A stretch of DNA of 64,000 bases from Escherichia coli (GTDB lineage: Bacteria > Pseudomonadota > Gammaproteobacteria > Enterobacterales > Enterobacteriaceae): assembly GCF_003334785.1 (NCBI RefSeq), contig NZ_QOWV01000012.1, one strand, 5' to 3'. The notes under the pieces were generated by a model. The model was not told the DNA's origin. It saw nothing but the letters and a program-made list of their open reading frames with translations, and ran no database searches. The position numbers were made by a program, and so were the translations under genes. Shown piece after piece: positions 60,903 through 61,415 of the stretch (positions within the stretch are counted from its first letter, which is position 1; every line of letters starts with the position of its first letter).

Positions 60903-61415
60903 CCCTTCGTAGGCAGCATCCGGCAGTCGGCGCATAATGCCTGATGCGACGCTTAACGCGTCTTATCATGCCTACAGGTTTGTGCCGAACCGTAGGCCGG
61001 ATAAGGCGTTCACGCCGCATCCGGCAGTTGGCGCACAATGCCTGATGCGACGCTTGACGCGTCTTATCATGCCTACAGGTTTGTGCCGAACCGTAGGCCG
61101 GATAAGGCGTTTACGCCGCATCCGGCAGTTGGCGCACAATGCCTGATGCGACGCTTGTCGCGTCTTATCATGCCTACAAGTCTGTGCCGAACCGTAGGCC
61201 GGATAAGGCGTTCACGCCGCATCCGGCAGTCGGCGCATAATGCCTGATGCGACGCTTGTCGCGTCTTATCAGGCCTACAGGTTTGTGCCGAACCGTAGGC
61301 CGGATAAGGCGTTCACGCCGCATCCGGCAGTTGGCGCACAATGCCTGATGCGACGCTGGACGCGTCTTATCATGCCTACAAGTCTGTGCCGAACCGTAGG
61401 CCGCATCCGGCATGT
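60903..61415. repeat. Tandem array of five ~101-bp BIME/REP units
   Basis: The unit gcctgatgcgacgcttNNcgcgtcttatcatgcctacaggtttgtgccgaaccgtaggccggataaggcgttcacgccgcatccggcagttggcgcacaat recurs at 60939, 61040, 61141, 61242 and 61343 (period exactly 101 bp); ORF-track fragments MPDATL...NRRPDKAFTPHPA are its translations. Confidence 0.8.

Follow-up and report, generated by a model that had tools for sequence, protein, structure and literature searches.

A BIME-2 array of five 101-bp Z2/Y units between yjjV and yjjW of Escherichia coli

The intergenic gap between the genes yjjV and yjjW of Escherichia coli contains a BIME-2 element, in which five 101-bp Z2/Y units follow each other head-to-tail. 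This identification is virtually certain. It was made in a 64,000-nt stretch of contig NZ_QOWV01000012.1 (assembly GCF_003334785.1), referred to here as the window. The array is an already known kind of element and is present in the reference strain at the same locus. BIME-2 arrays have been on record since the 1990s, together with their copy-number variation among strains and the roles that they probably play, and the BIME-2 family of E. coli was reportedly introduced by Gilson, Bachellier and Hofnung. The full explanation that is preferred here, which combines the BIME-2 identity with growth in place and with a hairpin buffer at both 3' ends, is probably correct.

Architecture and class of the array

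The sequence-only reading had placed a regular 101-bp tandem array between two convergent genes. This array is real. Tandem Repeats Finder delimits it at positions 60916–61403, with a period of 101, 4.8 copies, 94% matches and 0% indels (score 878), and an independent repeat search confirmed the period with start-to-start distances of 101, 101 and 101. The 64-kb window holds no other large tandem array, and the regular tandem structure takes up the whole intergenic stretch (60899–61414). The RefSeq annotation of a strain that is 100% identical over 1301 bp confirmed the flanking genes that had been named, with yjjV (+ strand) and yjjW (− strand) converging on the array. The features of the locus are as follows:

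60116–60898, + strand: yjjV, encoding a TatD-like metal-dependent hydrolase of 260 aa ("type B" allele), with its TAG stop codon at 60896–60898 (ORF list and RefSeq annotation of the identical strain)
60893–60905, + strand: small hairpin GGGTAGTTTACCC holding the yjjV stop codon, type-B left edge (fold)
60909–60924, + strand: left-edge Y REP remnant GTAGGCAGCATCCGGC with an 18-nt internal hairpin deletion (alignment and unit parsing)
60925–60938, + strand: 14-nt linker AGTCGGCGCATAAT, beta variant; more copies at 61026–61039, 61127–61140, 61228–61241 and 61329–61342
60939–60975, + strand: Z2 REP of unit 1, inverted, CCTAC end (pattern search; RNA hairpin of −14.7 kcal/mol, z = −5.1)
60976–60991, + strand: 16-nt linker, alpha AGGTTTGTGCCGAACC, beta AAGTCTGTGCCGAACC; more copies at 61077–61092, 61178–61193, 61279–61294 and 61380–61395
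60992–61025, + strand: Y REP of unit 1, GTAG plus imperfect palindrome (0 mismatches; RNA hairpin of −19.5 kcal/mol on the + strand and −21.3 kcal/mol on the − strand, z = −4.4 and −4.9)
61040–61076, + strand: Z2 REP of unit 2 (pattern search)
61093–61126, + strand: Y REP of unit 2 (pattern search)
61141–61177, + strand: Z2 REP of unit 3 (pattern search)
61194–61227, + strand: Y REP of unit 3 (pattern search)
61242–61278, + strand: Z2 REP of unit 4, the sole Z2 with an intact stem foot CAGGCC (0 mismatches)
61295–61328, + strand: Y REP of unit 4 (pattern search)
61343–61379, + strand: Z2 REP of unit 5 (pattern search)
61396–61411, + strand: right-edge Y REP remnant GTAGGCCGCATCCGGC, lacking 18 nt of its interior and separated from the yjjW stop codon by 3 nt
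61415–62278, − strand: yjjW, glycyl-radical enzyme activase, stop-codon complement TCA at 61415–61417 (ORF list and RefSeq annotation of the identical strain)

Each unit reads, in this order, Z2 REP (inverted), 16-nt linker, Y REP (direct) and 14-nt linker. The Z2 REP is 37 nt long, inverted and carries CCTAC at its end; the 34-nt Y REP follows the consensus GTAGGCCGGATAAGGCGTT[C/T]ACGCCGCATCCGGC. For the linkers, the consensus is A[G/A]GT[T/C]TGTGCCGAACC (16 nt) and AGT[T/C]GGCGCA[C/T]AAT (14 nt). In total, the array holds five Z2 REPs, four full Y REPs and one 16-nt Y remnant per edge. The Z2 REPs were recovered as five pattern matches with 0–1 mismatch, where 0 were expected from 100 shuffles, and the full Y REPs match the consensus exactly at 60992, 61093, 61194 and 61295, with none expected by chance. 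In four of the five Z2 units the stem foot reads CATGCC instead of CAGGCC, and the third base pair is thereby broken.

The unit starts that had been read from the letters (60939, 61040, 61141, 61242 and 61343) are the exact starts of the five Z2 REPs. The accompanying count of five units stands for these Z2 REPs, but the fifth unit is incomplete and ends in the 16-nt Y remnant, so that 4.8 copies is the more accurate figure. The proposal that the array ends exactly at the yjjW stop codon had to be corrected by 3 nt: the last REP base is 61411, and it is followed by 'atg' and only then by the TCA at 61415–61417.

The element had also been called a BIME, which is correct and can be narrowed down to BIME-2, as Z2 and Y REPs in alternating orientation are joined by short linkers. 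BIME-2 are defined by alternating Y and Z2 REPs, short linkers and a copy number that varies among strains at one locus (Ton-Hoang et al. 2012, PMC3333891). In the yjjV–yjjW array the Y REPs consist of GTAG and an imperfect palindrome, each hairpin having an internal 2x2 mismatch, and REP and inverted REP alternate throughout. The number of tandem copies differs by strain (4.8 here, 0–6 in E. coli and 11 in Escherichia sp. MOD1-EC7003). The site is extragenic, between the yjjV and yjjW stop codons, and lies at the 3' ends of transcription units. The linkers have the length of BIME-2 linkers and a sequence that is specific for this locus; such specificity is normal, as the linkers of BIME-2 are conserved inside a locus and differ among loci (PMC3333891). 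Neither a z1 REP nor the ~30-nt L motif of BIME-1 is present in the array. Nothing essential sets it apart from the family. The differences are local, namely the truncation of both edge Y REPs, the broken feet of four of the five Z2 REPs and, in one haplotype, a yjjV stop codon that is supplied by a REP.

A repeat search with a 9-nt seed returned no inverted repeats in the array. The REP stems are broken by mismatches and were therefore missed by this seed, whereas folding reveals the hairpins. A CRISPR array was also considered and could be ruled out, as the "spacers" are two constant linkers that are repeated in every unit.

The short ORFs that recur along the array had been explained as by-products of the repeat. 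The annotation agrees with this explanation: none of the records examined places a CDS in the gap, and the array ORFs are left unannotated in all RefSeq records examined. The RefSeq tables for K-12 contain no REP or repeat features either. The alternative that the 33-aa and 69-aa "MPDATL..." ORFs represent small-protein genes draws on the recurrence of ATG-start ORFs in every unit. These ORFs are found in several frames and on both strands and they shift with the copy number, and such genes are considered next to impossible. For annotation, the short repeat-derived ORFs in the yjjV–yjjW array should be disregarded.

Copy number, edge haplotypes and origin

The copy number was compared across E. 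coli genomes and is indeed variable, as had been proposed. It ranges from 0 to 6 units in E. coli and reaches up to 11 in another Escherichia species, in steps of ~101 bp. Two systematic samples of 60 rows each were taken from about 5,420 complete E. coli genomes, and one representative allele per length class was examined at sequence level. In both samples the length classes of the locus are 101 bp apart, with the following counts and approximate shares:

5 units: 18 in sample 1, 19 in sample 2, ~31%
1 unit: 14 in sample 1, 14 in sample 2, ~23%
2 units: 11 in sample 1, 10 in sample 2, ~18%
4 units: 7 in sample 1, 9 in sample 2, ~13%
3 units: 3 in sample 1, 4 in sample 2, ~6%
0 units: 2 in sample 1, 2 in sample 2, ~3%
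6 units: 1 in sample 1, 1 in sample 2, ~2%

The window allele thus belongs to the commonest class in the samples (5 units, about 31%). All K-12-type strains sampled have 4 units, and all O157:H7 strains sampled have 2. As the copy number is constant within the sampled clones, the array is not hypervariable on short timescales, and its changes would belong to an evolutionary rather than a laboratory timescale.

The sequence-only reading had named slippage as the source of such changes. Unequal recombination and RAYT-mediated recombination are equally compatible with the gain and loss of units. When the alleles are matched unit by unit, the window allele corresponds to the K-12 array with one extra unit inserted after unit 1. 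The order of the alpha and beta linker variants differs from strain to strain. Both observations are as expected from in-register unequal exchange or slippage.

The linkers also inform on the origin of the array. A junction-spanning 38-mer across the 14-nt linker occurs 1–6 times per genome, and the corresponding 40-mer across the 16-nt linker 1–4 times. Outside this locus, doublets with these linkers do not occur, and local amplification is thus favored over dispersal; being locus-specific, the linkers indicate that the array grew in place. When species-representative genomes were scanned with a yjjW motif, the same linkers and the Y-Z2-Y core were also found outside E. coli:

E. albertii: 1 unit, with a full-length Y REP at either edge
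Escherichia sp. E1V33: 2 units
E. whittamii: 4 units
Escherichia sp. MOD1-EC7003: 11 units, 1117 bp (10.9 copies in Tandem Repeats Finder)

The shared core and linkers in several Escherichia species show that the element predates their divergence.

Two haplotypes can be distinguished at the left edge. In type A, which comprises K-12, E. whittamii and the alleles with 0 and 1 unit, yjjV ends on the TAG that forms part of the GTAG of the REP; the type A YjjV of K-12 and some other strains counts 259 aa. In type B (the window and E. albertii), yjjV is one codon longer and is followed by the small hairpin and then by the REP. This hairpin (60893–60905) is weak, and the surrounding 51 nt fold at the level of shuffles (z = 0.35). 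The left-edge Y REP is full-length in strain N96 and in E. albertii, and its truncation in the window is therefore regarded as derived. The right-edge Y REP is full-length in a single-REP allele (AST215) and again in E. albertii. The full-length edge REPs of E. albertii indicate that truncation is the derived state at the edges of the E. coli array. Taken across alleles and species, the comparison of sequences shows an array that expanded and contracted in place by whole units and whose edge REPs lost their hairpins later, via 18-nt internal deletions.

The state of the edges bears on a possible effect on translation, i.e. that REPs next to the stop codons stall terminating ribosomes and thereby lower the translation of YjjV and YjjW. 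A passage in PMC12306157, which cites Liang et al. 2015, states that REPs located <16 nt from a stop codon down-regulate translation. In K-12 and in the single-REP allele, a full Y REP indeed encloses the yjjV stop codon, and 3 nt separate the yjjW stop codon from a REP. In the window, however, both stop-proximal REPs are truncated. The leftover local hairpins (−11.8 and −12.6 kcal/mol) are weak and no better than shuffles (z = 0.35 and −1.2), and the truncation leaves the first strong hairpin, that of the first intact REP, at 35–40 nt from either stop codon. Stalling is judged unlikely as the role of the array, although it might take place in strains with the K-12 haplotype.

At least one REP hairpin is present in the gap in nearly every Escherichia genome and in most Citrobacter genomes examined. 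No E. coli-type REP was recognizable in the 5–32 bp gaps of Salmonella diarizonae, Yokenella and some Citrobacter.

Citrobacter youngae ATCC 29220 and C. portucalensis A60 carry tandem arrays of their own at the orthologous gap, with a period of 84 and 5.7 and 5.1 copies, respectively. Like the E. coli array, these consist of two alternating inverted REP types, and each fills the very same gap between the convergent genes with about 5 units. In contrast, their period is 84 instead of 101, and the REP and linker sequences are others, from which an independent origin follows. It could be speculated that the yjjV/yjjW gap is a cross-genus hot spot for the independent growth of REP arrays, and that the repeated, independent loss of stop-adjacent REPs reflects selection against ribosome stalling, but this is improbable. 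The recurrence and the edge damage also have mundane readings, such as a preference of REPs for insertion at existing hairpin sites and the ordinary decay of array edges. If a site-specific driver did exist, be it selection that favors a hairpin buffer or the supercoiling or gyrase activity at a convergent gap, the array length would be a tunable trait.

Hairpins, termination and candidate roles

As RNA, the Y REP folds into a hairpin of −19.5 kcal/mol (+ strand) or −21.3 kcal/mol (− strand), and the Z2 REP into hairpins of −14.7 and −13.8 kcal/mol on the two strands; all are far better than those of shuffles. Adjacent Y and Z2 REPs can also pair with each other. In either register and on either strand, the result is a single long hairpin of −45.0 to −48.4 kcal/mol (z = −5.5 to −7.1). 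For the array as a whole the fold reaches z = −11.7 (+) and −10.7 (−), with many competing folds, and the centroid of the minus-strand array is nearly unpaired. Among the distinct unit variants from 15 alleles, the Y REPs show 0.36 substitutions per paired column versus 0.92 per unpaired column, and the Z2 REPs 0.04 versus 0.69. No compensatory double changes were found among these variants.

A strong terminator had been suggested as one function of the array. This suggestion is not supported: an intrinsic terminator, i.e. a GC-rich hairpin followed by a U-tract, was not found on either strand of 60899–61414 (scan of 60000–62400), and no REP in the array sequence is followed by a T-run. On the yjjV strand, the termination signal of K-12 is instead Rho-dependent; it peaks ~100 nt past the array and stays partial as long as no drug is added. 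The Rho-termination region that peaks at 4,614,777 in K-12, i.e. 97 nt past the array, was mapped on the yjjV-sense strand in 800-nt windows that give a resolution of ~800 nt and with detection on one strand only (Adams et al. 2021, PMC7815308, supplementary file 2). The Rho score of this region is 4.9 (p = 6.7e-7), and coverage without bicyclomycin is 43 upstream and 21 downstream, versus 43 and 103 with it (PMC7815308). Among the curated Term-seq 3' ends of Adams et al. 2021 (PMC7815308), none falls inside the K-12 array (MG1655 4,614,2xx–4,614,6xx), which low expression or multi-mapping could explain. The K-12 peak corresponds to ~61512 in the window and there falls into the following stretch:

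61400–61600, + strand: C-over-G-rich stretch, candidate Rho-loading region (GC skew of −0.16 to −0.27), antisense to the yjjW 3' end

This is the strongest C-over-G stretch of the neighborhood on the yjjV-sense strand. Its mirror stretch, past the left edge of the array, is C-rich on the minus strand.

A Rho signal past the array together with C-rich flanks matches what Peters et al. and Dar and Sorek have described. In their model, termination by Rho is spread over a region downstream of the REPs, and the transcripts are then shortened by PNPase and RNase II as far as the protective hairpins (PMC6061677). The yjjV–yjjW locus shares with these Rho-dependent protected 3' ends (Peters et al. 2012; Dar and Sorek 2018, PMC6061677) the stable hairpins that lack a U-tract, the excess of C over G downstream and, in K-12, the bicyclomycin-sensitive region. 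It differs in that many hairpins occur in series, versus one in the described cases.

Among BIME-2 arrays, REP325 (yjdM–yjdN) is the best studied. It is likewise composed of tandem Y-linker-Z2 with a constant spacer, has a period of 100 versus 101, and matches the same Rfam model (RF02564). Its linker and spacer sequences are others, and it lies between tandem genes of one operon instead of convergent genes. Experiments on this 12-hairpin BIME-2 revealed an attenuator that depends partially on Rho and that also stabilizes the upstream mRNA (Harris et al. 2026, bioRxiv 10.64898/2026.03.23.713779). It yields a ladder of hairpin-terminated RNAs, and the Rho-dependence is seen only with the full array (bioRxiv 10.64898/2026.03.23.713779). 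In the same study, REPs between convergent genes correlate genome-wide with a higher expression of both genes, genes with a terminal REP show no genome-wide difference in mRNA half-life, and yjjW appears in the supplement in the differential-expression table only (bioRxiv 10.64898/2026.03.23.713779).

By analogy with REP325 and with the genome-wide studies, the stabilization of mRNA is the best-supported role of the array. That the array would act as a bidirectional hairpin buffer, protecting the 3' ends of yjjV and yjjW at the RNA level, is accordingly the reading toward which we lean, if only slightly. Both convergent transcripts would extend into the array, where they would form hairpins of high stability. 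As no intrinsic stop would be encountered, Rho would terminate transcription in the C-rich, untranslated antisense RNA just past the array, after which PNPase and RNase II would trim back to the REP hairpins. We infer that this exonuclease trimming stops at the hairpins of the array and that the expression of the neighboring genes is affected. The REP hairpins would shield the yjjU-yjjV and yjjI-yjjW mRNAs and curb antisense read-through into the opposite gene. Extra units would bring redundancy and a spacing of the Rho-dependent termination zones, but no activity of a new kind. At the DNA level, gyrase may also be bound by the Y REPs.

This last point leads to another reading, in which the array is primarily a topological element of the DNA and the Y REPs extrude or serve as strong gyrase sites that relieve the positive supercoils between convergent genes. 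The location fits, and as single-stranded DNA the REPs form hairpins of −12 (Y) and −7 (Z2) kcal/mol, so that cruciforms are conceivable. Gyrase cleavage sites are significantly over-represented in BIME-2, more so in Y than in Z2, and their signal goes up when transcription is blocked (PMC6379681). However, only a subset of BIME-2 contains cleavage sites, and sucC-sucB and tldD-yhdP are named, not yjjV–yjjW (PMC6379681). The supplement text of Sutormin 2018 on gyrase sites makes no mention of yjjV or yjjW. The rise of the signal with rifampicin moreover argues against a transcription-coupled role. For BIME-2 in general such a role is plausible, and gyrase may act here too, but as the main function this would be doubtful.

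For REP325, a role in the nucleoid has also been put forward. Qian et al. reportedly described REP325 and naRNA1–6 between yjdM and yjdN in 2015. Applied to yjjV–yjjW, the units would encode naRNA4-like RNAs that bind HU, bridge REP cruciforms and condense the chromosome. Four matches to the Rfam model RF02564 (naRNA4, CssrE), each made up of Y, 14-nt linker and Z2 and scoring 74.2–83.7 bits, are found in the array:

60995–61073, + strand: RF02564 match
61096–61174, + strand: RF02564 match
61197–61275, + strand: RF02564 match
61298–61376, + strand: RF02564 match

These four plus-strand units and one minus-strand unit (61.0 bits) exceed the gathering score of 59.5 bits. The naRNA4 role was originally proposed in PMC4550694. 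However, RF02564 also matches an unrelated small BIME at 53143–53225, which means that the model recognizes any Y-linker-Z2 unit, and the linker of yjjV–yjjW is unlike that of REP325. Furthermore, deletion or overexpression of REP325/naRNA4 leaves the nucleoid size unchanged, and neither a stable HU-DNA-RNA ternary complex nor REP-REP contacts in Hi-C were found (bioRxiv 10.64898/2026.03.23.713779). The nucleoid function is already largely refuted for REP325, the type element, and for the array studied here it is very unlikely.

IS621, constraint on unit number and use of the locus

In strain GPEC548, an IS621 copy is found within the yjjV–yjjW array, at ...ATCATGCCT^AC in a Z2 foot. The natural target of IS621, a bridge-recombinase element, is ATCAGGCCTAC (PMC11208160), and the insertion site in GPEC548 is one base off this target. 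In the window, the last 11 nt of the Z2 REP of unit 4 (61268–61278, ATCAGGCCTAC) are an exact natural target, and the other four of the five Z2 units are one base away from it.

The range of 0–11 units and the one allele that is interrupted by IS621 show that the unit number is at most weakly constrained. Such weak constraint is as compatible with a repeat that is largely neutral or selfish as with a regulator that has been tuned. The array might then be essentially a neutral or selfish cluster of REPIN-type repeats: 0–11 copies are carried without visible cost, 0-unit alleles exist, the IS621 insertion is tolerated and the edge REPs decay through deletion. TnpA-REP cleaves and recombines BIME substrates in vitro and has been proposed to drive changes in copy number (PMC3333891). 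The likeness to REPIN/RAYT systems (Bertels and Rainey; E. coli TnpA-REP) is close, in that an inverted REP pair with a short spacer forms one long hairpin, as adjacent Y and Z2 REPs do here. The Y REPs further carry the conserved GTAG and the stem mismatch that are required for TnpA-REP binding. REPINs are dispersed, however, whereas the yjjV–yjjW units are tandemly amplified at one site. The retention of one REP hairpin or more in almost all of the Escherichia genomes examined and in most of those of Citrobacter, the higher conservation of stems than of loops and the measurable effect of REP325 on its neighboring genes all speak against pure neutrality. A neutral or selfish array is thus somewhat unlikely as the whole explanation. 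It is a serious partial alternative, which is compatible with the hairpin buffer.

As a discovery, the array is of little weight, since BIME-2 have been described for long. The locus does provide a natural allelic series of 0, 1, 2, 3, 4, 5, 6 and 11 units with identical flanks. This series could be used to study the effects of hairpin number on Rho-dependent termination, on mRNA protection and on the interference between convergent genes.

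The Z2 foot and an IS621 insertion

In four of the five Z2 REPs of the window (units 1, 2, 3 and 5; 60939-61379), CAGGCC is replaced by CATGCC, a change that disrupts the third base pair of the Z2 stem foot. The same variant is common to most Z2 units across all Escherichia alleles examined, and this distribution shows it to be an old, locus-specific variant that has spread via amplification.

The yjjV-yjjW BIME array of E. coli GPEC548 (NZ_CM142809.1, comparison locus L053) is interrupted by a copy of IS621, an IS110-family element with a bridge-RNA recombinase:

L053 2620-4010, IS621 copy (transposase CDS at 2886-3866)

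The insertion point, ...TTATCATGCCT^AC, lies within the foot of a Z2 REP and differs by one mismatch from the published natural IS621 target, ATCAGGCCTAC (PMC11208160). The exact target is present in unit 4 of the window (61268-61278).

Flanking genes

The C-terminus of yjjV occurs as two haplotypes (window 60880-60925 versus 5245-5290 of comparison locus L001). In the 259-aa form (…FNVP*), a Y REP supplies the stop codon through its GTAG. The window has the 260-aa form (…FSVSG*), downstream of which lie a small hairpin and then a truncated Y. Each form is found in more than one Escherichia species.

Both flanking genes also contain an intragenic match to the sigma-54 binding motif:

60710-60726, plus strand, motif in yjjV (IS56)
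62193-62209, minus strand, motif in yjjW (IS57)

Both sites were mapped in K-12 by ChIP (Bonocora et al. 2015), and the yjjV motif of the window differs by one base from that of K-12. Since the two motifs are sense-oriented, any transcription from them would head towards the array.

Other repeats and RNAs in the window

Several further elements were located in the window:

15422-15498, plus strand, SymR antitoxin RNA (Rfam match, 89.5 bits; gathering score 61)
31838-31952, imperfect period-52 repeat
31894-31927, minus strand, perfect Y REP inside this repeat
52912-52995, minus strand, tRNA directly upstream of the next element
53140-53284, second BIME, also small, with a pair of Y-like REPs at a distance of 111 bp
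53143-53225, Rfam naRNA4 match in this BIME (70.3 bits)

The Y-like REPs of the second BIME carry a paired stem-foot change (GTAGGTCGG...CCGAC), by which the base pair is kept. The period-52 repeat probably represents either a small BIME or two paired REPs. The SymR match marks the symE/symR type I toxin-antitoxin locus.

The yjjV-yjjW gap in other genomes

The longest version of the array was found in Escherichia sp. MOD1-EC7003 (L046 3258-4351), where 11 Z2 and 11 Y REPs occupy a gap of 1117 bp. These ~22 palindromic units far exceed the 1-12 quoted for K-12 REP elements.

In Kluyvera, Pseudocitrobacter and Pluralibacter the gap measures ~1419-1440 bp and presumably holds an additional gene; E. 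coli-type REPs are absent from it at all nine loci (L013, L018, L019, L026, L029, L030, L033, L047 and L051). Tandem BIME arrays fill the orthologous gap in two Citrobacter genomes:

L017 6888-7363, C. youngae ATCC 29220 (period 84, 5.7 copies, 96% matches)
L039 2566-2994, C. portucalensis A60 (period 84, 5.1 copies, 93% matches)

They are composed of Citrobacter-type REPs and of linkers with no relation to those of Escherichia, and both arrays are independent of the Escherichia array.
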